The translations under genes were made by a program, and so were the position numbers. The notes under the pieces were generated by a model, which did not search any database, was not told where the DNA came from, and saw only the letters and a list, made by a program, of their open reading frames with translations. Below, one piece after another: positions 43,584 to 53,045 of a stretch of 64,000 nt of DNA. The stretch's first letter is position 1. Each line of letters starts with the position of its first letter. The DNA comes from Endomicrobiaceae bacterium (GTDB taxonomy: Bacteria; Elusimicrobiota; Endomicrobiia; Endomicrobiales; Endomicrobiaceae), in assembly GCA_963666965.1 (NCBI GenBank), contig OY762939.1, positions 1,235,287 to 1,299,286 of the forward strand. Reading direction: 5' to 3'.

Positions 43584-44504
43584 ATGCAAAAACAAACAAT
43601 AATTATTTCGGGTCCGACAGCTTCCGGTAAAACCGCCGTTGCCGTTGAGCTTTGCAAAAAAATAAACGGTGAAATAATATCAGCTGATTCTCGCCAGATT
43701 TATAAATATCTTGATATAGGAACAAATAAAGACGGTATTCTCTCTGAAAATGGAATAAGATATGTTTCATCGGTGCCTCAGCATCTTACCGATATCATAG
43801 AACCCGATAAAAGATACAGCACAAAAAAATTTGAGACAGACAGCGAACAGATAGAAAAAGATTTGATTCTGAAAGGCAAAGTCCCGGTTATTGCCGGAGG
43901 CACGGGTTTATATATAAAGTCTTTTTTATACGGTCTTGACGAACTTCCGGACGCAGATGAAACGATGCGCTCTGAAATACAAAAAGAAATTGAAGAAAAA
44001 GGGCTTGAGTCGGTTTATCAAAAACTTTTAAATGCAGATCCCATATCAGCTGAAAAAAATAAAGGCAATACGCAAAGAATCGTAAGAGCTTTTGAAATAT
44101 ATAAGCTTACCGGTAAAACAATGACAGAATTCTTAAATAAAAAAACAAAAAAGAACAGGAATTTTAGGCATTTTGTCATATTTAAAGACAGAGAAATTCT
44201 GTATAGAGACATAAATAACAGATGCAAACTTATGGTCAATTCGGGCATGATAGAAGAAACTGAAAAGGTTTTGGAAATGGGTTTTAAAAAAGATTCACCG
44301 GCTCTTACCGGAGTTGGGTATAAAAATATTATTTCTTATCTTGAGAATAAAATTACAAAAAAGGAACTTATTGATATTTTTTCGGCAGAAACAAGGCAGT
44401 ATGCAAAAAGGCAGATAACATGGTTTAAATCACAGCCTGACACTATTGTTCTTGACGGTTCTAAAAAATGGCTTGTTGACGACATATTAAAGCATATTTC
44501 TTGA
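43584..44504 (+). CDS. miaA: tRNA dimethylallyltransferase
   Basis: IIISGPTASGKTAVAVEL ... ISADSRQIYKYLDIGTNK. Confidence 0.85.
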   Translation: MQKQTIIISGPTASGKTAVAVELCKKINGEIISADSRQIYKYLDIGTNKDGILSENGIRYVSSVPQHLTDIIEPDKRYSTKKFETDSEQIEKDLILKGKVPVIAGGTGLYIKSFLYGLDELPDADETMRSEIQKEIEEKGLESVYQKLLNADPISAEKNKGNTQRIVRAFEIYKLTGKTMTEFLNKKTKKNRNFRHFVIFKDREILYRDINNRCKLMVNSGMIEETEKVLEMGFKKDSPALTGVGYKNIISYLENKITKKELIDIFSAETRQYAKRQITWFKSQPDTIVLDGSKKWLVDDILKHIS

Positions 44505-44541
44505 CTTACTGACGTAAAAGATATAAAATAAGGGTAATATT

Positions 44542-44745
44542 ATGGCTAAAATAACAGTTAACAACGACAGATGTAAAGGATGCGGGTTATGCGTAGATGC
44601 TTGCCCTAAAAAATGCATTTCTTTTTCACAAAATCTTAACAAAATAGGTTATCATTATGCCGTTCTTAAGAATGAAAAAGACTGTATAGGATGCGGGTTT
44701 TGTTATCAGGTATGCCCGGATGTATGCATTGAGGTTTATAAATAA
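44542..44745 (+). CDS. 2-oxoacid:ferredoxin oxidoreductase delta subunit (2x4Fe-4S ferredoxin)
   Basis: 67 aa with CKGCGLCVDACP and CIGCGFCYQVCP. It is the first gene of a D-A-B-C order like oorDABC. Confidence 0.8.
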   Translation: MAKITVNNDRCKGCGLCVDACPKKCISFSQNLNKIGYHYAVLKNEKDCIGCGFCYQVCPDVCIEVYK

Positions 44746-45794
44746 TGGATAAACATTTAATTAAAGGAAACATAGCTTTATGCGAGGGAGCGATAACTGC
44801 AGGGTTAAGCGCCTATTTCGGTTATCCTATAACTCCGCAGAATGAAGTTCCTGCTTATATGTCCAATAAAATGGTTAAGCTGGGAAGAGTTTTTGTTCAG
44901 GCAGAATCTGAACTTTCGGCTGCCAATATGGTTATGGGCGCATATGCCACCGGAAAAAGAGCGATGACTTCATCTTCTTCTCCGGGGATATCATTAAAAC
45001 AGGAAGCGATTTCATATTTGGCCGGAATGGAAGTTCCGGGCGTCATAGTGAACGTTCAAAGAGGCGGGCCGGGACTTGGCAATATTTCCGGTTCTCAGGC
45101 TGATTATTTTCAAGCTACAAAAGGTGGCGGACACGGTGATTATCATACGATAGTTCTTGCTCCTAACAGCGCTCAGGAAATGTATGAAATGGCTTACGAT
45201 TCTTTTGATCTGTCCGAGAAATACAGAACTCCGGTTATGATTTTAGCAGACGGAATTATAGGACAGATGATGGAACCTGTTGAATTTAACAGAAAAGAAA
45301 AAACAGAATTTAAAAAAAATGACTGGGCTTTGGACGGATGTGCCGGAAGAGAGCCGCGGTCTTTGCAGTCTCTTCTTATGAAAGACGGAGCCCTTGAACA
45401 GCATAATCTCGATTTGCAGAAAAAATATGAAGAAATAAAGAAAAATGAAGTAAAGTACGATATGTATGAAACCAAAGATGCTGAAATAATAATAGTTGCT
45501 TACGGAATATCTTCGAGAATTGCAAAAAATGCTTTAAAACTTGCAAGACAGCAGGGAATAAAAGCAGGAATGATAAGACCTAAAACATTATGGCCTTTCC
45601 CTTATGAAATTATAAATCAACATGCAGGACAAGGCGTAAAATTTTTAACTGTTGAACTTTCTATGGGGCAGATGGTTGAAGACGTAAAACTTGCCGTAAA
45701 CGGAAAGTCTCCGGTTGAATTTATAGGAAGAGCCGGTGGCGGAGTAATCACCGTGCAGGCTGTTTTAAATAAAATTATGGAATTAAAAAAATAA
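44745..45794 (+). CDS. 2-oxoacid:ferredoxin oxidoreductase alpha subunit
   Basis: GNIALCEGAITAGLSAYFGYPITPQNE, typical of the OFOR alpha N-terminus. Confidence 0.8.
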   Translation: MDKHLIKGNIALCEGAITAGLSAYFGYPITPQNEVPAYMSNKMVKLGRVFVQAESELSAANMVMGAYATGKRAMTSSSSPGISLKQEAISYLAGMEVPGVIVNVQRGGPGLGNISGSQADYFQATKGGGHGDYHTIVLAPNSAQEMYEMAYDSFDLSEKYRTPVMILADGIIGQMMEPVEFNRKEKTEFKKNDWALDGCAGREPRSLQSLLMKDGALEQHNLDLQKKYEEIKKNEVKYDMYETKDAEIIIVAYGISSRIAKNALKLARQQGIKAGMIRPKTLWPFPYEIINQHAGQGVKFLTVELSMGQMVEDVKLAVNGKSPVEFIGRAGGGVITVQAVLNKIMELKK

Positions 45795-45795
45795 A

Positions 45796-46536
45796 ATGGA
45801 AAAAATACTATCAAGACCAAAAGCGCTTAAAGATAATCCTTTGTCTTACTGTCCGGGATGCGGACACGGAGTAATACACAGGCTCATAGCAGAATCAATC
45901 GACGAACTCGGCATAAGAGAAAAGACAATTGCCGTAGCTCCCGTCGGATGCGCAGTTTTTGCGTATGATTATTTTAATTTTGATACTACCGAAGCACCGC
46001 ACGGAAGACCTCCGGCTGTTGCAACAGGAATTAAAAGGACTAATCCTGATAAAATAGTTTTTACATATCAGGGAGACGGTGATTTGGCTGCGATAGGTAC
46101 TGCCGAGACAATCCACTGCGCAAACAGAGGCGAGAATATAACTGTAATTTTTGTAAATAACGCCAATTACGGTATGACAGGCGGACAGATGGCGCCTACG
46201 ACTTTAGTAGGACAGGTAACTGAAACCACTCCTTTCGGAAGAGATCCGTTAAGAGAAGGTTATCCGATAAAAGTTGCAGAACTTTTGGCGAATCTTCAGG
46301 GAACAAAATACATAGAGAGAGTAACTGTTTTTAACGCCCTTCATATAATCAAGGCTAAAAAAGCTATCAAAAAAGCTTTTCAAAACCAAGTTGAAGGCAA
46401 AGGGTATTCTTTTATTGAAGTTATATCTCACTGTCCTGTTGACTGGGGAAAAACTCCTCAGGAATCAGTAAAATGGGTTGAAGACGTATTTTTAAAAACA
46501 TTTCCCTTGGGCGTAATAAAGGATGAAACTAAATAA
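45796..46536 (+). CDS. 2-oxoacid:ferredoxin oxidoreductase beta (TPP-binding) subunit
   Basis: YCPGCGHG and the GDGD...NNANYGMTGGQ TPP motif. Confidence 0.8.
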   Translation: MEKILSRPKALKDNPLSYCPGCGHGVIHRLIAESIDELGIREKTIAVAPVGCAVFAYDYFNFDTTEAPHGRPPAVATGIKRTNPDKIVFTYQGDGDLAAIGTAETIHCANRGENITVIFVNNANYGMTGGQMAPTTLVGQVTETTPFGRDPLREGYPIKVAELLANLQGTKYIERVTVFNALHIIKAKKAIKKAFQNQVEGKGYSFIEVISHCPVDWGKTPQESVKWVEDVFLKTFPLGVIKDETK

Positions 46537-47075
46537 TGAAAACATATAATGAAATAATCATTGCAGGATTCGGCGGACAGGGAGTTTTGCTTGCCGGCAC
46601 TATTTTGGCTCAAAGCGCAATGGAAGAAGGTTTAAATACGACATGGTTTCCTTCTTACGGTGCAGAAATGAGAGGCGGAACGGCAAATTCAACGGTTATT
46701 ATTTCAGATGATGAAATAGGATCCCCGATAGCTTTTAACCCGTCCGGACTTGTAGCTCTTAATGCTTTGTCTCTTGATAAGTTTTTGCCCAGAATGTCTG
46801 AAAATGCGGTTATAATAGCTAATTCATCAATTATAAATAAAGATGATTATAAAAATAAGAACATACTATTTATTCCGATTTCAGAAATAGCAGACAAAGA
46901 AATAGGAAATATTAAAGCCGCCAATATGGTTGCAGTAGGCGCGTTGGTAAAAGCATTAAATGTTCCTGCATTGGACAATGTGCTTAATGCAGTTAAGAAC
47001 GCTTTTGCAAAAAAAGAAGGGCTTTCGGAATTGAATGTAAAAGCCGTAAAAGCCGGATATGATTATAAAATCTAA
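46536..47075 (+). CDS. 2-oxoacid:ferredoxin oxidoreductase gamma subunit
   Basis: IIAGFGGQGVLLAG ... GAEMRGGTANS. Confidence 0.8.
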   Translation: MKTYNEIIIAGFGGQGVLLAGTILAQSAMEEGLNTTWFPSYGAEMRGGTANSTVIISDDEIGSPIAFNPSGLVALNALSLDKFLPRMSENAVIIANSSIINKDDYKNKNILFIPISEIADKEIGNIKAANMVAVGALVKALNVPALDNVLNAVKNAFAKKEGLSELNVKAVKAGYDYKI

Positions 47076-47088
47076 GAAAGGAGAGAAA

Positions 47089-47568
47089 ATGAAGATAAGG
47101 CATGCCAAAGTATCGGATGTTAAGGCAATACATACTCTTGTTGAGTATTATGCAAACAACAAGGAAATGCTTCATAGATCTCTCAATTCAATATATGAAA
47201 ACATACAGGAATATATGGTAGCAGAAGAAAAGGGCGAGATTATAGGCTGCGGAGCTTTACACGTTTCGTGGGATAATCTTGCAGAAATTAAAGCTTTGGC
47301 AGTTTCAAAAAATCACATGGGGACCGGCATAGGAAGGAAAATAGTCTCGGAACTAGAAAAAAATGCTCTTAAACTTGACGTATTCACTACATTTGCGTTA
47401 AGTTTTAAACCAGGTTTCTTTCAGAAACTCGGATATGAAATAATATCAAAAGAAGTATTGCCTCAAAAAATCTGGAGCGAATGTATCAATTGTCATTTAT
47501 TTCCTGACTGCGGTGAAATTCCGTTGATAAAAGATTTAAAACATACCAAAAAGAAAAACAAAGCTTAA
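47089..47568 (+). CDS. GNAT N-acetyltransferase (short ArgA-like)
   Basis: RBS ggagag followed by an ATG. The GNAT motif A region is LAVSKNHMGTGIGRKIV. Confidence 0.65.
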   Translation: MKIRHAKVSDVKAIHTLVEYYANNKEMLHRSLNSIYENIQEYMVAEEKGEIIGCGALHVSWDNLAEIKALAVSKNHMGTGIGRKIVSELEKNALKLDVFTTFALSFKPGFFQKLGYEIISKEVLPQKIWSECINCHLFPDCGEIPLIKDLKHTKKKNKA

Positions 47569-47764
47569 GTATAGTTTATTTATACCTTAAATAGTTTACT
47601 TTATAATAATCTAATTTCTTAGTTCTATTTACAGGTATTATTTTTATAATATATCCTTTGTGGTATACATTAAAACACATATACCTTTAAAGATATATAA
47701 ATGATATGTTTTGAAAAATTATTATATTAAAGATGATATATTATTGAGTTTTATTGGAGGAGTA

Positions 47765-48715
47765 ATGTTAAAACCAAAAGTTTCAATTATAGGATGCGGT
47801 AATGTAGGTATGAGATATGCCTACGCTTTAATGATAAACGGGACTGCAAGGGAAATAACGCTTGTTGATTATGATATAAAAAAGGCAGAAGGCGAGGCCA
47901 TGGACTTATCACACGGAGCTCCATATACTAACCCTGTTAATGTTGTTGCCGGCACCTATAGGGATATAAGCGGTTCTGATTTAGTTGTAATCACAGCCGG
48001 CAAGAAACAAAAACCCGGTCAGACAAGGGTAGACCTTCTTAAAGATAATATAGATTTGTTTAAAAGCATAATTCCTGAAATTATAAAGTATGCTCCGGAT
48101 GCAATTTTAATAATAGCTTCAAATCCGGTTGATATTCTTACTTATGCTGCCTATAAAATATCCGGTAAAAAATCTTCAAAAATTATAGGGTCAGGAACTC
48201 TTTTGGATTCTGCCAGATTTAGATATGAAATAGCCAGACACTGCAATATTGATTCAAGAAGCATACATGCTTATATTTTGGGAGAACACGGCGACAGTGA
48301 ATTTCCCGTATGGAGCAAAGCTACTTTAGGCGGAGTAAATATAGACAGTTACTGCATGCTATGCAACAACAAATCAGACTGCGATCATAAAGCTAAACTT
48401 GACGAAATATTTACCAACGTAAAAAACTCGGCCTATAAGATAATAGAAAAAAAAGGCGAAACTTCGTACGGAATAGGCCTTGCTCTTGTAAGAATCACAC
48501 AGGCAATCCTTCAGAATGAAAACGCTGTTCTTCCCGTATCTGTTTTAATTGAAGATTTTTGCGCAGTAGAAGATGTTTATTTGAGTCTTCCCGCAGTTAT
48601 TAACGCGGAAGGAATAAGACAGGTGCAAAAAATTGAATTTAACGATATAGAAAAAAAATCATTTGTTGAATCTGCAACCGTTCTAAAACAGTTATTGAAA
48701 GAAGTCGGTTTCTAG
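47765..48715 (+). CDS. ldh: L-lactate dehydrogenase (Gln at specificity position 102)
   Basis: RBS ggagga. GCGNVGMRYA Rossmann motif. AGKKQKPGQTRVDL has the Q codon CAA at 48008-48010. LDSARFR and GEHGDS (catalytic His) are present. Confidence 0.8.
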   Translation: MLKPKVSIIGCGNVGMRYAYALMINGTAREITLVDYDIKKAEGEAMDLSHGAPYTNPVNVVAGTYRDISGSDLVVITAGKKQKPGQTRVDLLKDNIDLFKSIIPEIIKYAPDAILIIASNPVDILTYAAYKISGKKSSKIIGSGTLLDSARFRYEIARHCNIDSRSIHAYILGEHGDSEFPVWSKATLGGVNIDSYCMLCNNKSDCDHKAKLDEIFTNVKNSAYKIIEKKGETSYGIGLALVRITQAILQNENAVLPVSVLIEDFCAVEDVYLSLPAVINAEGIRQVQKIEFNDIEKKSFVESATVLKQLLKEVGF

Positions 48716-48717
48716 TT

Positions 48718-49671
48718 ATGGAGAATATATTAAAACCAAAAGTTTCAATTATAGGCTGCGGCAGTGTTGGTATGCGGTATGCTTATGCCTTAATGATAAA
48801 AGGGATAGCCAGAGAAATCACGCTTGTTGACGTTGATATGAAAAAAGCAGAAGGCGAGGCTATGGATTTATCCCACGGCTTGCCTTATACAGATCCTGTT
48901 AATATTGTTGCAGGAGAATATAAAGATACAGCCGGTTCAGATTTAGTTGTTGTGACAGCCGGAAAAAAGCGAAAGGCCGGTCAAACAAGAGTAGATTTAT
49001 TAAAAGATAATATAGATTTATTTAAGACAATAATTCCGGAAATTATGAAATATGCGCCGGATGCAATTTTGCTGATAGTATCCAATCCTGTAGATCTGTT
49101 AACTTACATTACTTATAAAATATCCGGCAAAAAATCTTCTAAAATTATAGGTTCAGGAACTCTTTTAGACACTGCAAGACTTAAAAATGAAATATCAAAA
49201 AACTGCAATATAGATTCAAGAAGTATACATGCTTATATATTAGGGGAACACGGCGACAGCGGATTTCCTGTTTGGAGCAAAGCTGCGGTCGGCGGTATAA
49301 ATATAGAGAAATATTGTCTTCTATGTGATAATAAATGTCAATATAAAAAGAAATTGGAAGAAATATTTAATAATGTCAAAACTTCAGGTTCTGCAATTAT
49401 TGCAAGAAAAGGTGAAACTTCATACGGAATAGGTCTTGCTCTTTTAAAAATTACACAGGCCATTCTTAAGAACGAAAACGCTGTTCTTCCGGTATCCGTA
49501 TTAATTGAAAATATTTACGGTATAAATGATGTGTATTTAAGTTTACCGGCTGTAATTAATTCAGACGGAGTAAGGCAGGTACAAAACATTGAATTGAATG
49601 ACACGGAAAAGCAGGCATTTTTAAAATCGGCAAATGTTTTAAAACAGTTATTGAAAGAAGTGGGATTTTAA
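48718..49671 (+). CDS. LDH paralog with Arg at position 102: predicted malate (oxaloacetate) dehydrogenase specificity
   Basis: Well over 70% identical by eye to the upstream ldh. AGKKRKAGQTRVDL has the R codon CGA at 48970-48972. LDTARLK (Arg173 is replaced by Lys). GEHGDS is conserved. Confidence 0.6.
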   Translation: MENILKPKVSIIGCGSVGMRYAYALMIKGIAREITLVDVDMKKAEGEAMDLSHGLPYTDPVNIVAGEYKDTAGSDLVVVTAGKKRKAGQTRVDLLKDNIDLFKTIIPEIMKYAPDAILLIVSNPVDLLTYITYKISGKKSSKIIGSGTLLDTARLKNEISKNCNIDSRSIHAYILGEHGDSGFPVWSKAAVGGINIEKYCLLCDNKCQYKKKLEEIFNNVKTSGSAIIARKGETSYGIGLALLKITQAILKNENAVLPVSVLIENIYGINDVYLSLPAVINSDGVRQVQNIELNDTEKQAFLKSANVLKQLLKEVGF

Positions 49672-49686
49672 ATACGGAGTTTAATA

Positions 49687-50106
49687 ATGAAAACTTTCAG
49701 AAAAGAACTTACATTCAACACGTCAAAACGAATAGAATTTATAAACATAACCGAGCAGGTTCAGGATGCAATAAACGAAAGCGGCATTAAAGAAGGAATT
49801 TGTCTTGTTAATGCAATGCATATAACGGCAAGCGTTTTTATAAATGATAACGAATACGGACTTCACAGCGATTTTGAAAAATGGCTTGAAAAACTTGCTC
49901 CGCACCAGCCTATAAATTATTACCGTCACAATAATACAGGCGAGGATAACGCCGATTCACATCTTAAAAGACAAATAATGGGAAGAGAAGTTACAGTTGC
50001 AGTTACAAACGGCAGGCTGGATTTTGGTCCTTGGGAACAGATATTTTACGGCGAATTTGACGGAATGAGAAGAAAAAGAGTTTTAATAAAAATAATCGGC
50101 GGTTAA
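49687..50106 (+). CDS. yjbQ: YjbQ/UPF0047 family protein
   Basis: 139 aa. [12 protein letters not shown] ... DNADSHLK ... [18 protein letters not shown] is typical of YjbQ. Confidence 0.75.
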
Positions 50107-50110
50107 GAAA

Positions 50111-51091
50111 TTATAAATTGCCGCTTCCTATCGTTACTTCGCCTGATTCAACAGTTTCAAACTTCCCGTTTGAAGTTTTTACGATAAGATTTCCTTTTTC
50201 GTTGATATCAGTTACATTTCCTTCTTTTTTTAATCCGTTGATAACATATGATATATTCTTATTTAAAATAATTGAATGTTTTTTATATTCCTGTATCAAA
50301 TTTTTATTTTTTAAATCGCCGTATAAAATATTAAGATTATTTGCTATTTCCGCAATCAAAATATTTCTGCTTAAATTATCGCAATAAAGAGAAGTCGCAT
50401 TTTTTTTCATTTCTTTCGGGAAATCTTCGGTTTTTATATTTACGCCTATTCCGACGATAACGCTTTCAGCTGTCTGACTTTCAAAATCTATTGTGGCTTC
50501 CGTTAGAATACCGCATATTTTTTTTCCGTTTAAAAACACATCATTTACCCATTTAATATCTGTATCAATGCCTGTCAGTTTTTTAACTGCTCTTACTACC
50601 GATACAGCCGCAGCTATAGTTATGAGCTGAGTATCTGCAGCATTTTTGTTTGGCTTAAAAACAACGGTCATATAAATGCCTGTTTTTGCGGGGGAAAAAA
50701 ACTTTCTGTCAAATCTTCCTCTTCCGGCAGTTTGTTCATCGGCTGTTATGATTGTTCCGTGTTCTGCCGTTCCTTCGGCGACCATCTTTTTAGCCTGATT
50801 ATTTGTGGAATCAATAGTTTTATAAACGTATATTGCAAAGTGTTTGTTTTCAGGCGACAGATAAAGACGTATTCCTTCTGAGGAAAGAATATCGGAATTT
50901 GCGGAAAGAATATAACCGTTGTTCGTTGACGCTTTTATGGGATAGCCTTCTTTTTTTAATGCATTTACCGCCTTCCACACAGCTGTCCTTGAAACGGAAA
51001 GTTTACCGGCAAGTTCCTGTCCCGAAACTGTTTTTTGTTTGTTTTTTTCAAGAATAGATATTATTTCATTTTTTAAAGACACTTTTATCAC
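50111..51091 (-). CDS. birA: bifunctional biotin-[acetyl-CoA-carboxylase] ligase / biotin operon repressor
   Basis: N-terminal HTH (SGQELAGKLSVSRTAVWKAVNALK), catalytic GRGRFDRKFFSP and KWVNDV motifs, and a C-terminal SH3-like tail. Confidence 0.85.
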   Translation of the reverse strand: MIKVSLKNEIISILEKNKQKTVSGQELAGKLSVSRTAVWKAVNALKKEGYPIKASTNNGYILSANSDILSSEGIRLYLSPENKHFAIYVYKTIDSTNNQAKKMVAEGTAEHGTIITADEQTAGRGRFDRKFFSPAKTGIYMTVVFKPNKNAADTQLITIAAAVSVVRAVKKLTGIDTDIKWVNDVFLNGKKICGILTEATIDFESQTAESVIVGIGVNIKTEDFPKEMKKNATSLYCDNLSRNILIAEIANNLNILYGDLKNKNLIQEYKKHSIILNKNISYVINGLKKEGNVTDINEKGNLIVKTSNGKFETVESGEVTIGSGNL

Positions 51092-51121
51092 CTTTTATTA
51101 AGTTAACATATTAAAATACAA

Positions 51122-51154
51122 ATTGTCAACTTAAATACAATCAGGGTTAACAAT
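51122..51154. promoter_or_regulatory. candidate BirA operator (bioO)
   Basis: ATTGTCAAC-N15-GTTAACAAT is an inverted repeat with one mismatch, 31-63 nt upstream of birA. It matches the TGT(T/A)AAC-N14-16-GTT(A/T)ACA type BirA signal. Confidence 0.5.
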
Positions 51155-51257
51155 GCTTTTTGAAAACCTAATAAATATGCTCAATAATTTTTGCAAAAAA
51201 TATAACAAAAAGATAGAATTGACTGGTATATATATTATTTAAAGGAATTTATATAAA

Positions 51258-53045
51258 ATGGATAAAAAATACGATGTAATTATAATAGGCGCCGGAAATG
51301 CGGGCTGCGAGGCTGCTCTTGCATGTGCAAGAATAGGCGTAAAAACTCTTCTTATGACGCAAAATATGGATAGCGTGGCTAATATGCCGTGCAACCCTGC
51401 CATAGGCGGAATTGCAAAAGGACAGATGGTAAGAGAAATCGACGCTCTGGGCGGAGAAATGGGATGGATAACTGACCAGGCCGGCATAATGTTTAAAGTT
51501 TTAAATAAATCAAGAGGACCGGCAGTATGGTCTCCGAGAGCGCAGTGCGATAAAAAACTTTATTCGGCGTATATGCTCAATTCAATTATCAATCAGAAAA
51601 ATCTTCACATAGTTCAGATGCAAGCGGAAAGAATTATAGTAAAAAATAATAAAGTCTGCTCCGTTGTCACAAAGCTCGGAGACATTGTTGAAACATCGGA
51701 AATAATAGTTACAACCGGAACTTTTTTAAACGGAAAAATATTCGTCGGAAAAACTTTTTTTGACGGAGGCAGATTTAACGAGACATCTTCCGTGAGCCTT
51801 TCTGATTCGCTAAAAAATGACTGCGGACTTGAAATAGACAGATTTACGACTTGTACTCCTCCGAGAATAAACGGATGTTCCGTTGATTATTCTAAAATGG
51901 AGATACAGCCCGGCGATAATCCTCCGATACCCTTTTCTCATTTTACAGATACTGTAAACTGGCAGAAGACAAAAAAGCAGGTGCCGTGCCACATGGTGTA
52001 TACAAATGAAAAAACTCATAAAATAATAGCAGCCAATATTCAGGATTCTTCTCTTTACAACGGGCTTGCCGATGCGCACGGACCGAGATACTGTCCTTCA
52101 ATTGAAGATAAAATAGTCAGGTATGCTCACAGAGAAAGACATCAGTTATTTCTTGAACCGGAAAATCTTGCCACAAAAGAAATTTATATTAACGGTCTTT
52201 TTACCGGCCTTGGCGAAGAAGTCCAGAAACAAATGCTTTGTTCAATAGAAGGTATGGAAAATGTAGTCGTTACGCGTTACGGATACGCAATAGAATATGA
52301 TTATGTTCCTCCGACTCAGCTAAAGCCTACTCTTGAAACAAAAAAAATAGAAAATCTTTTCCTTGCCGGTCAAATTAACGGAACAACAGGATATGAAGAA
52401 GCCGCGGCTCAGGGCATTATAGCCGGAATAAACGCCGCCATGAAATTTATCGGACAGGAACAGGTTGTTTTGACAAGACAGGATGCTTACATTGGTATTT
52501 TAATTGACGATTTAGTGACAAAAGGCGTTGATGAACCTTACAGAATGTTTACTTCAAGAGCAGAATACAGATTAAGCATAAGAAGCGATAACGCAGATCT
52601 TCGTCTTATGGATATAGGAAGAAGAGTAGGGCTTATATCTGATGCAATGTATAAAAGATTTGAGCTTTACAGACAGACGCTTGTTAATATTTATGATAAA
52701 GTAAGTCAGGAAATGCCGTCTGATGAAGAATTATTTCCATGGTCTCAGGCAAAAGTTCAGGATGAAATGGCCATAACGCTTAAGTACGACGGCTATATAC
52801 AAAGACAAAAAAGCAACGCGCTTAAAATATCCAAGTATGAAAATAAAAGAATTCCAAACGACCTGGATTTTAACGTAATTTCGTCTCTTTCAAGAGAAAC
52901 AAAAGAAAAGTTTGCAAAAATAAAACCGGAAACTCTCGGACAGGCGCACAGAATTCCGGGAGTAACTCCTACAGATATAGTATTTTTATATATAGCCATT
53001 GAAAAAATGGCAAGGAGCAAAAAATATGAAAGTCAGAGAATCTGA
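51258..53045 (+). CDS. mnmG: tRNA uridine 5-carboxymethylaminomethyl modification enzyme MnmG (GidA)
   Basis: YDVIIIGAGNAGCEAALACAR ... PSIEDKIVRY ... AGQINGTTGYEEAAAQG. Confidence 0.9.
   Translation: MDKKYDVIIIGAGNAGCEAALACARIGVKTLLMTQNMDSVANMPCNPAIGGIAKGQMVREIDALGGEMGWITDQAGIMFKVLNKSRGPAVWSPRAQCDKKLYSAYMLNSIINQKNLHIVQMQAERIIVKNNKVCSVVTKLGDIVETSEIIVTTGTFLNGKIFVGKTFFDGGRFNETSSVSLSDSLKNDCGLEIDRFTTCTPPRINGCSVDYSKMEIQPGDNPPIPFSHFTDTVNWQKTKKQVPCHMVYTNEKTHKIIAANIQDSSLYNGLADAHGPRYCPSIEDKIVRYAHRERHQLFLEPENLATKEIYINGLFTGLGEEVQKQMLCSIEGMENVVVTRYGYAIEYDYVPPTQLKPTLETKKIENLFLAGQINGTTGYEEAAAQGIIAGINAAMKFIGQEQVVLTRQDAYIGILIDDLVTKGVDEPYRMFTSRAEYRLSIRSDNADLRLMDIGRRVGLISDAMYKRFELYRQTLVNIYDKVSQEMPSDEELFPWSQAKVQDEMAITLKYDGYIQRQKSNALKISKYENKRIPNDLDFNVISSLSRETKEKFAKIKPETLGQAHRIPGVTPTDIVFLYIAIEKMARSKKYESQRI

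Follow-up and report, generated by a model that had tools for sequence, protein, structure and literature searches.

Glutamine at residue 102 is the signature of canonical lactate dehydrogenases (LDHs; PMC10583557, PMC4109310). Arginine occupies the position in all known malate dehydrogenases (MDHs), and Gln102Arg alone turns the LDH of Bacillus (Geobacillus) stearothermophilus into an MDH (PMC4109310, citing Wilks 1988), a switch that has become the textbook case of re-engineered enzyme specificity. The natural evolution of LDHs from MDHs is well studied, whereas for the reverse direction one natural case is on record (PMC10583557), the MalDH of Planctopirus limnophila, named in that paper, after Brochier-Armanet and Madern 2021, as the single documented natural turn of an LDH towards MDH activity. 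A tandem pair of genes in a 64,000-nucleotide stretch of an Endomicrobiaceae genome (the window, to whose positions the coordinates below refer) would be a new and cleaner case of this known type of natural LDH-derived MDH. Copy 1 (47765-48715) carries Gln102 and copy 2 (48718-49671) carries Arg102, both on the plus strand, as are the codons and motifs cited below. From its sequence and phylogeny, copy 2 is predicted with a probability of about 0.7 to be an LDH-derived, oxaloacetate-reducing MDH.

The engineered enzyme of Wilks et al. 1988 (cited in PMC4109310) shares with copy 2 a bacterial LDH scaffold of the fructose-1,6-bisphosphate (FBP) type, the same Gln102-to-Arg replacement by the same type of one-base CAA-to-CGA step, and the retention of Thr246 and the catalytic residues. 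That enzyme is a laboratory mutant, whereas copy 2 is natural and fixed across its genus and, unlike the mutant, adds Ala138Val and a change of helix Ala-Tyr to Gly-Ser; the MDH preference of copy 2 is a prediction. The P. limnophila MalDH resembles copy 2 by description, as a naturally occurring enzyme of the MDH type whose reported origin lies on the LDH side of the superfamily, but it comes from a different phylum, has the FBP-site signature R/D/T, and is not reported to have an adjacent, 78%-identical parent copy with Gln102. Cryptosporidium parvum likewise shows a neofunctionalisation in tandem, with an LDH and an MDH paralogue side by side that are distinguished at the specificity residue (Madern et al. 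2004, cited in PMC4109310). There the change went the opposite way, from MDH to LDH (Arg102 to Gly), and the pair is that of a eukaryote and falls within the LDH-like MDH clade. The LDH-like (type 3) tetrameric MDHs described by TIGR01763 share with copy 2 the tetramer-type LDH/MDH fold, Arg102, and a glycine in the pocket helix. Membership of copy 2 in this type 3 clade was considered and rejected, as it scores 208.8 bits against the equivalog cut-off of 351.85 bits (MalateDH_bact) and is nested inside canonical LDHs. At this locus parent and derived enzyme stand side by side at 78% identity; five or more genomes of the genus have orthologues, and sister genera provide an independent replicate. 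The pair is thus a compact natural experiment on which substitutions beyond residue 102 are needed, on the fate of FBP allostery, and on the repeatability of the path. Furthermore, the wider survey described below suggests that other Arg102 proteins scoring as L-LDHs are common.

Residue 102 and the substrate pocket

The two genes are separated by 2 nucleotides, the TAG stop of copy 1 being followed by TT and then by the ATG of copy 2. An earlier model-made reading of the window (the sequence-only reading) gave this spacing exactly, and its estimate by eye of more than 70% identity agrees with measured values of 78% for protein (245/316) and 78% for DNA. Copy 1 encodes 316 amino acids from an ATG 7 nucleotides downstream of GGAGGA, with a longer alternative open reading frame from a TTG at 47711, and copy 2 encodes 317 amino acids. 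The window is part of a complete single-contig genome of 1.84 Mb, and homologues of the pair carry the names Endomicrobiaceae or Elusimicrobiota.

Both proteins contain Ldh_1_N and Ldh_1_C domains, and both exceed the cut-offs of the L-LDH models TIGR01771 (cut-off 303.55; 380.8 bits for copy 1 and 376.2 bits for copy 2) and PRK00066 (cut-off 339; 392.9 and 391.4 bits). Copy 1 matches Protein Data Bank (PDB) L-LDHs at E 1e-90, and its AlphaFold (AF2) model, with a predicted local distance difference test (pLDDT) score of 92 and a predicted template modelling (pTM) score of 0.90, reaches template modelling (TM) scores of 0.92-0.95 to solved bacterial allosteric LDHs; a fold search with the model confirmed the canonical LDH fold and nothing beyond it. 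With these matches, Gln102, Ala138, Arg173/His188/Tyr190, and the helix S-A-Y-K-I-I, copy 1 is a canonical allosteric-type L-lactate dehydrogenase, and it would be the organism's fermentative, FBP-type enzyme. Copy 2, with Arg102, Val138, Lys173, and the helix S-G-S-A-I-I, is an LDH-derived paralogue and a predicted NAD-dependent malate dehydrogenase (oxaloacetate reductase). The MDH subfamily model NF004863 (cut-off 283) is passed by copy 2 (292.3), with copy 1 below it (278.7), and the TIGR01763 score is higher in the Arg copy than in its Gln partner in 9/9 tandem pairs of the family, by a margin of 3 to 21 bits.

The specificity loops read TAGKKQKPGQTR in copy 1 and TAGKKRKAGQTR in copy 2. 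The loops and codons in the sequence-only reading prove exact, namely CAA for Gln102 of copy 1 (residue 82; 48008-48010) and CGA for Arg102 of copy 2 (residue 85; 48970-48972). In HMMER alignments to solved LDHs this column falls on the Gln of TAGAPQKPGETR (L. casei, 2ZQY) and of AAGVPQKPGETR (T. maritima, 1A5Z), the classical Gln102, and in a MAFFT alignment it falls on the Arg of SAGVARKPG in the MDH of E. coli K-12, which confirms that the difference lies at the true position 102. Copy 1 has the Gln102 signature of a canonical LDH; copy 2 has the Arg102 of an MDH and, because Arg rather than Gln stands at 102, is not to be filed as a functional L-LDH. Arg109, Asp168, Arg171, His195, and Thr246, aligned to solved LDHs, are all kept in both copies. 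Among the orthologues of copy 2 the arginine is encoded by CGA, CGG, or AGG, and this synonymous turnover argues that Arg itself is selected.

Additional positions in the pocket change with residue 102. Each of two Arg102 clades, that of copy 2 and a second one in sister genera, was compared with its own Gln sisters: Gln102 is invariant in the sister LDHs (46/46 and 18/18), as is Arg in both derived clades. Ala138 is replaced by Val in both (Ala in 46/46 against Val in 9/9, and Ala in 16/18 against Val in 11/11). In the window the replacement is the GTA codon of copy 2 at 49078-49080, where copy 1 has Ala. The Ala of the helix S-A-Y-x-I-I is replaced by Gly in both (Ala in 46/46 and 18/18 against Gly in 9/9 and 11/11), and the adjacent Tyr is Ser or His in one Arg clade and Lys or Arg in the other. 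Copy 1 has GCC TAT at this site, encoding the Ala-Tyr of S-A-Y-K-I-I (residues 223-224; 48431-48436), and copy 2 has GGT TCT, encoding the Gly-Ser of S-G-S-A-I-I (residues 224-225; 49387-49392), with the Gly matching that of A-G-T-E-V-V in E. coli MDH. The two residues lie ten and nine positions N-terminal of Thr246 in copy 1, and the column labels 237/238 given to them are provisional dogfish numbers. As a mark of MDHs the helix Gly, which copy 2 has, is a data-derived correlate of this analysis rather than a curated criterion. Val138 and the helix Gly are MDH-like changes beyond those that the sequence-only reading had noticed, and they strengthen its prediction of an LDH/MDH pair.

Metabolic context and predicted function of copy 2

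From the observed residue states, phylogeny, selection, and presence or absence of genes we infer a substrate preference and a metabolic role for copy 2. It would have originated as a tandem duplicate at or near the base of the Endomicrobiaceae genus and been converted to an NADH-dependent oxaloacetate reductase. The charge needed for oxaloacetate's second carboxylate would come from Arg102 (mechanism per PMC4109310, after Wilks 1988), with the helix Ala-to-Gly and Tyr-to-Ser changes in the pocket wall and Ala138-to-Val accompanying the switch, and the Gly and the smaller residue in the pocket helix may make room for the larger substrate. The new enzyme would link oxaloacetate to malate, in a route leading from phosphoenolpyruvate through oxaloacetate and malate to either pyruvate (a malate shunt) or fumarate.

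The two genes of the pair are the only Ldh_1_N (LDH/MDH-family) genes in this 100%-complete genome, and among MDH types the genome holds no further Ldh_1_N and no Ldh_2-type gene (malate:quinone oxidoreductase was not searched for); thus, no other mdh was found beside copy 2. Nothing scored over the TIGR01763 cut-off in a set of 61 genomes drawn from the same genus, family, order, and class, where all matches were LDH-type proteins. GTP-dependent phosphoenolpyruvate carboxykinase (PEPCK), malic enzyme, and class I fumarase are found in 27/27 genomes of the family, and ATP-dependent PEPCK and pyruvate carboxylase / oxaloacetate decarboxylase in 0/27. Because the first three are present and a standard MDH is not, the family makes oxaloacetate and uses malate without a conventional connecting enzyme. 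Being universal in the family, malic enzyme, fumarase, and PEPCK do not separate genomes with and without the Arg copy; malic enzyme and class I fumarase are candidate partners of the predicted MDH. The prediction of an LDH/MDH pair in the sequence-only reading emerges strengthened by the true position 102, the LDH origin of copy 2, the absence of another mdh, and the extra MDH-like changes, while the function it assigned stays a prediction.

Several points weigh against an MDH function. The L-LDH score of copy 2 (376 bits, TIGR01771) far exceeds its MDH score, the copy retains Thr246, His188, and Tyr190, and its neighbours (2-oxoacid:ferredoxin oxidoreductase, GNAT, YjbQ) provide no malate-specific context. 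Sister genera that have PEPCK, malic enzyme, and fumarase manage without any MDH, so that a physiological need for one is not evident. Finally, position 102 is not always decisive, as strong epistasis is found in apicomplexan enzymes (PMC4109310).

Position 102 is unusually variable in this subfamily (Gln, Arg, Asn, Gly, His, Thr, Ile), and a four-subunit 2-oxoacid:ferredoxin oxidoreductase is encoded ~0.7 kb upstream of the pair, as might be expected if copy 2 acted on some other 2-oxo acid, negatively charged or larger (such as 2-oxoglutarate, hydroxypyruvate, or sulfopyruvate), or were a broad 2-hydroxyacid dehydrogenase, rather than a dedicated MDH. Gly substitutions placed in the same helix of the B. 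stearothermophilus LDH by Wilks et al. in 1990 reportedly widened its substrate range. Such a substrate is nonetheless unlikely, given that Arg102 is the universal MDH state (PMC4109310), that the accompanying Gly is the E. coli MDH state and is also found in 31/35 Arg102 rows of the wider family, that the genome encodes enzymes which make and use oxaloacetate and malate, yet no MDH, and that a GNAT gene and a 196-nucleotide spacer lie between the oxidoreductase operon and the pair. An oxaloacetate-reducing MDH therefore remains the preferred assignment for copy 2. Every member of the group is publicly annotated 'L-lactate dehydrogenase', the label that pipelines give to all these proteins, and metabolic reconstructions of Elusimicrobiota, in which 'malate fermentation' is scored by KEGG orthologue (bioRxiv 10.1101/765248), would miss the oxaloacetate-malate step.

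Some further observations touch on this metabolic context. The genes for malic enzyme (~450 amino acids) and class I fumarase lie ~2 kb apart outside the window (G000:C1:734421-737484), with the same closeness in most relatives. Matches to Succ_DH_flav_C are proteins of ~525 amino acids in 26/27 genomes, which by their size are probably L-aspartate oxidase rather than fumarate reductase. Only one of the 27 family genomes, G010 (genus g7), has genes of the Ldh_2 type (malate/L-lactate dehydrogenase family 2); it carries two copies (C33:11034-12014 and C83:16658-17686) and no LDH-type gene. The variability of position 102 is a property of the LDH subfamily with a Cys loop, described below, from Elusimicrobiota, Omnitrophota, and some Lokiarchaeota-labelled metagenome-assembled genomes, in which small Asn, Gly, His, Thr, and Ile clades also occur (homologue set P0046-P0121 and P0176-P0200; loci L020, L032, and L038). 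This pattern of residues suggests that substrate changes beyond the LDH/MDH pair may have happened repeatedly.

Origin of the duplication and other Arg102 lineages

In a maximum-likelihood tree the Arg copies form one clade (9 rows, 99/96) nested in the clade of the genus and in a 29-row clade (100/100), the rest of which is all Gln102, and the placement of copy 2 among Gln102 LDHs is unchanged in a 153-row tree rooted on E. coli MDH. Copy 2 is an Arg102 protein nested in Gln102 canonical LDHs, the placement that distinguishes a natural LDH-derived MDH, and the phylogeny bears out the earlier suggestion that it was derived from an LDH within this lineage. The pair is present in 4/4 near-complete (99-100%) reference genomes of the genus and in the NCBI assembly GCA_054685455.1 (L058), with the order GNAT - LDH(Gln) - LDH(Arg) - YjbQ - BirA in all five; the single-copy LDHs of sister genera have different flanking genes. 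The number of synonymous substitutions per synonymous site (dS) is ~1.07 between the paralogues and 0.1-1.5 between orthologues of different species, and the duplication is therefore old relative to speciation within the genus. This age, together with the synteny common to at least five genomes and the lack of conversion tracts along the pair, speaks against the recent duplication that the sequence-only reading had assumed. The Gln copy has a ratio of replacement to synonymous change (dN/dS) of ~0.05 and the Arg copy one of 0.10-0.13, so both are under purifying selection, with replacement sites of the Arg copy evolving about twice as fast as those of the Gln copy. That copy 2 is a decaying duplicate was considered and is ruled out, since its dN/dS is 0.10-0.13 and its catalytic residues are intact. 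Tracts of gene conversion between the two were also sought and not found: identity is evenly spread along the pair (63-84% per 30 codons), with no identical run longer than 26 nucleotides.

Two genera of the same family, g10 and g14, also have two adjacent LDH genes, the extra copy reading TAGAGRKPGQ[ST]R and thus carrying Arg102. Here the Arg copy lies upstream of its Gln partner, with spacers of 43-387 nucleotides and AGA as the Arg codon, and the type is represented by ~14 database clusters, all from Endomicrobia and all annotated L-LDH. This second Arg clade (100/100) has the Gln LDHs of g2, g3, g10, g11, and g14 as its sister group within a 100/99 clade that is separate from the 100/100 clade with the window pair. 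A constraint joining all 20 Arg rows costs 72.7 units of log-likelihood (delta lnL) and rejects a single origin in the approximately unbiased (AU) test (p = 0.0012), a formal value that is weakened, to the detriment of the argument, by the group of Arg rows having been named after the first tree was seen. On this phylogenetic evidence, the second Arg102 clade arose via a separate duplication.

The same set of derived states occurs in both Arg clades, T-A-R-L-x-N is found around residue 173 in some members of each, and gene conversion is common among tandem paralogues. These features would accord with a different history, in which one ancient duplication and a single Gln-to-Arg change took place in the family ancestor, gene conversion later homogenised the pair in the window genus, and the two Arg clades are independent in appearance only. 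Such a history is improbable, as it is opposed by the even identity along the pair and the short longest identical run noted above, by the gene order (Gln-Arg here against Arg-Gln in g10 and g14) and spacers (2 against 43-387 nucleotides), by flanks of single-copy relatives that are unlike those here, by the rejection of a single Arg clade in the AU test, and by Arg codons that are mostly CGN (one AGG) here and AGA in the other clade.

Separate origins of the two Arg clades are thus preferred. For the wider family, 1.84 billion representatives of 50%-identity clusters were searched exhaustively with HMMER. Arg102 is found in 30 of the 150 best representatives, and the helix Gly in 27/31 Arg102 rows (those 30 and copy 2). 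In a set of 152 family rows (mostly 50%-cluster representatives), Arg102 is combined with the helix Gly in 31/35 and Gln102 with a residue other than Gly in 91/95. In an independent-pairs test, Arg102 and the helix Gly change together (7.3 pairs the same way, 0 opposite, median p = 0.016), replacement of the helix Tyr follows the same trend (median p = 0.06), and Val/Ile138 is not significant as a general correlate of Arg102. When ten Arg102 representatives were tested on NCBIfam, 10/10 scored over the L-LDH cut-off and 0/10 as MDH. A quick 153-row tree with an E. coli MDH root places some Arg/Gly rows in a basal grade and scatters others within the Gln/Ala canonical clade; parsimony counts 13 Arg/Gln changes among the 152 family rows, a rough figure from a poorly resolved tree. 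A third Arg102 lineage (P0186) stands alone beside pgk and is not in tandem.

A broader proposal, to which we give a little less than even odds, is that the Endomicrobiaceae may have re-invented an MDH from a fermentative LDH at least twice, each time via tandem duplication with Gln102Arg, Ala138Val, helix Ala-to-Gly, and replacement of the Tyr, and that such LDH-to-MDH reversions may be frequent in uncultivated bacteria. If this is true, a substantial fraction of the proteins labelled 'L-lactate dehydrogenase' by automatic annotation would be malate dehydrogenases, and the literature, with its one natural case, would greatly undercount such events.

Several irregularities were seen among the homologues. 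Between the window and locus L004 (genome G003), dS is 0.11 for the Arg copy and 0.50 for the adjacent Gln copy, a contrast that may mark a boundary of recombination or transfer within the pair. In the sister species represented by L058 (2929-3000), no ATG, GTG, or TTG precedes the conserved ILKPKISIIGCG of the Arg copy; the frame is open from the preceding stop and GGGAG lies a few nucleotides 5' of ATT-ATA, signals that make a rare ATT or ATA the probable start codon. Gene callers place the start of such Arg copies at an internal Met, with loss of the GxGxxG dinucleotide-binding motif, as is also the case for P0003, P0005, and P0006 (301 amino acids). An LDH homologue in another genome (G039:C1:243755-244700) is in two pieces with one in-frame TAA and is probably a pseudogene. 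Long LDH-family proteins also occur, namely P0203 (720 amino acids), P0244 (684), P0241 (573), P0051 (468), and P0201 (462); P0203, P0241, and P0244 each match the LDH query twice, in separate stretches, which points to a fusion or duplication of LDH domains.

FBP site, Cys loop, and neighbouring genes

The FBP signature Arg173/His188/Tyr190 (PMC10583557, Table 1) is complete in copy 1 (R/H/Y) and reads K/H/Y in copy 2, where AAA at 49183-49185 encodes Lys173 in place of Arg and ARFR has become ARLK. The sequence-only reading had reported the Arg173 and His188 of copy 1 and the Lys of copy 2 correctly, and had taken the latter to be consistent with a loss of LDH-type allostery. That interpretation is weakened, as the change is limited to Arg173Lys and to part of the Arg clade, and FBP-site loss is not seen uniformly in the Arg copies. 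Arg173 is kept in 4/7 Arg-clade clusters (P0004, P0005, P0007, and P0008), with R/H/Y retained by other members, and His188 in 7/7. The second Arg clade is mostly V-or-I/Y/P at the signature: all members checked have Val or Ile in place of Arg173, and nearly all have Tyr in place of His188; across the wider family, the independent-pairs test gave no significant association of FBP-site loss with Arg102. That copy 2 might still be an LDH isozyme in which regulation alone has changed (for instance, a weaker FBP dependence via Arg173Lys, with Arg102 tolerated) would agree with its top scores on L-LDH models, its Thr246, His188, and Tyr190, and the public annotation of all members as 'L-lactate dehydrogenase', but is highly improbable in view of the invariance of Gln102 in 46 and 18 sister LDHs and of Arg in both derived clades, the parallel changes of pocket residues, the unfavourable burial of Arg102 against pyruvate on the classical charge-balance explanation (cited in PMC4109310), and the confinement of Arg173Lys to part of the clade.

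Each copy has a loop rich in cysteines. In copy 1 this is CMLCNNKSDCDH (48353-48388), with the motif C-x2-C-x6-C-x-H, and it is the least confident region of the AF2 model (pLDDT ~71); in copy 2 it is CLLCDNKCQY (49315-49344), with the motif C-x2-C-x3-C-x-Y, a deletion of two amino acids, and His replaced by Tyr. The sequence-only reading had called the loop unusual and typical LDHs Cys-free at this segment, which is contradicted by the occurrence of a three-Cys loop, C-x2-C-x(2-9)-C and often ending in C-x-H, in 158/201 homologue clusters (Elusimicrobiota, Omnitrophota, and others), and by the LDH of T. maritima (1A5Z). The latter, which has Gln102, 45% identity, and a TM score of 0.93 to the copy 1 model, carries C-x2-C-x2-C at the same loop position, in a loop that is shorter and is without the C-x-H ending. 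The Cys motif is altogether missing from the second Arg clade and from Endomicrobiellum-type LDHs. Judged from this distribution, a large LDH subfamily has the loop as an ancestral trait; in copy 2 it is degraded, and it shows no evident connection with the specificity switch. It may form a structural metal (Zn) site; no published statement on metal binding at the T. maritima Cys cluster was found in the literature searched.

The region 5' of copy 1 (47569-47764, plus strand) is an AT-rich intergenic stretch of 196 nucleotides with a GGAGGA Shine-Dalgarno sequence and a promoter-like TTTATA-17-TATAAT (47579-47607, plus strand), a consensus match that is not above shuffled expectation. A promoter and terminator scan of 44000-51400 likewise returned counts not over shuffled expectation and is uninformative on operon structure. 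Downstream, a YjbQ-family gene (49687-50106, plus strand) begins 15 nucleotides 3' of copy 2; it is the conserved downstream neighbour of the pair and is probably co-transcribed with copy 2. Upstream, and conserved within the genus, lies a GNAT N-acetyltransferase gene of the PRK07757 type (47089-47568, plus strand), and directly 5' of it, in the same layout in L058, is the four-gene 2-oxoacid:ferredoxin oxidoreductase operon (44542-47075), which encodes the delta, alpha (VorB-like), beta, and gamma subunits.

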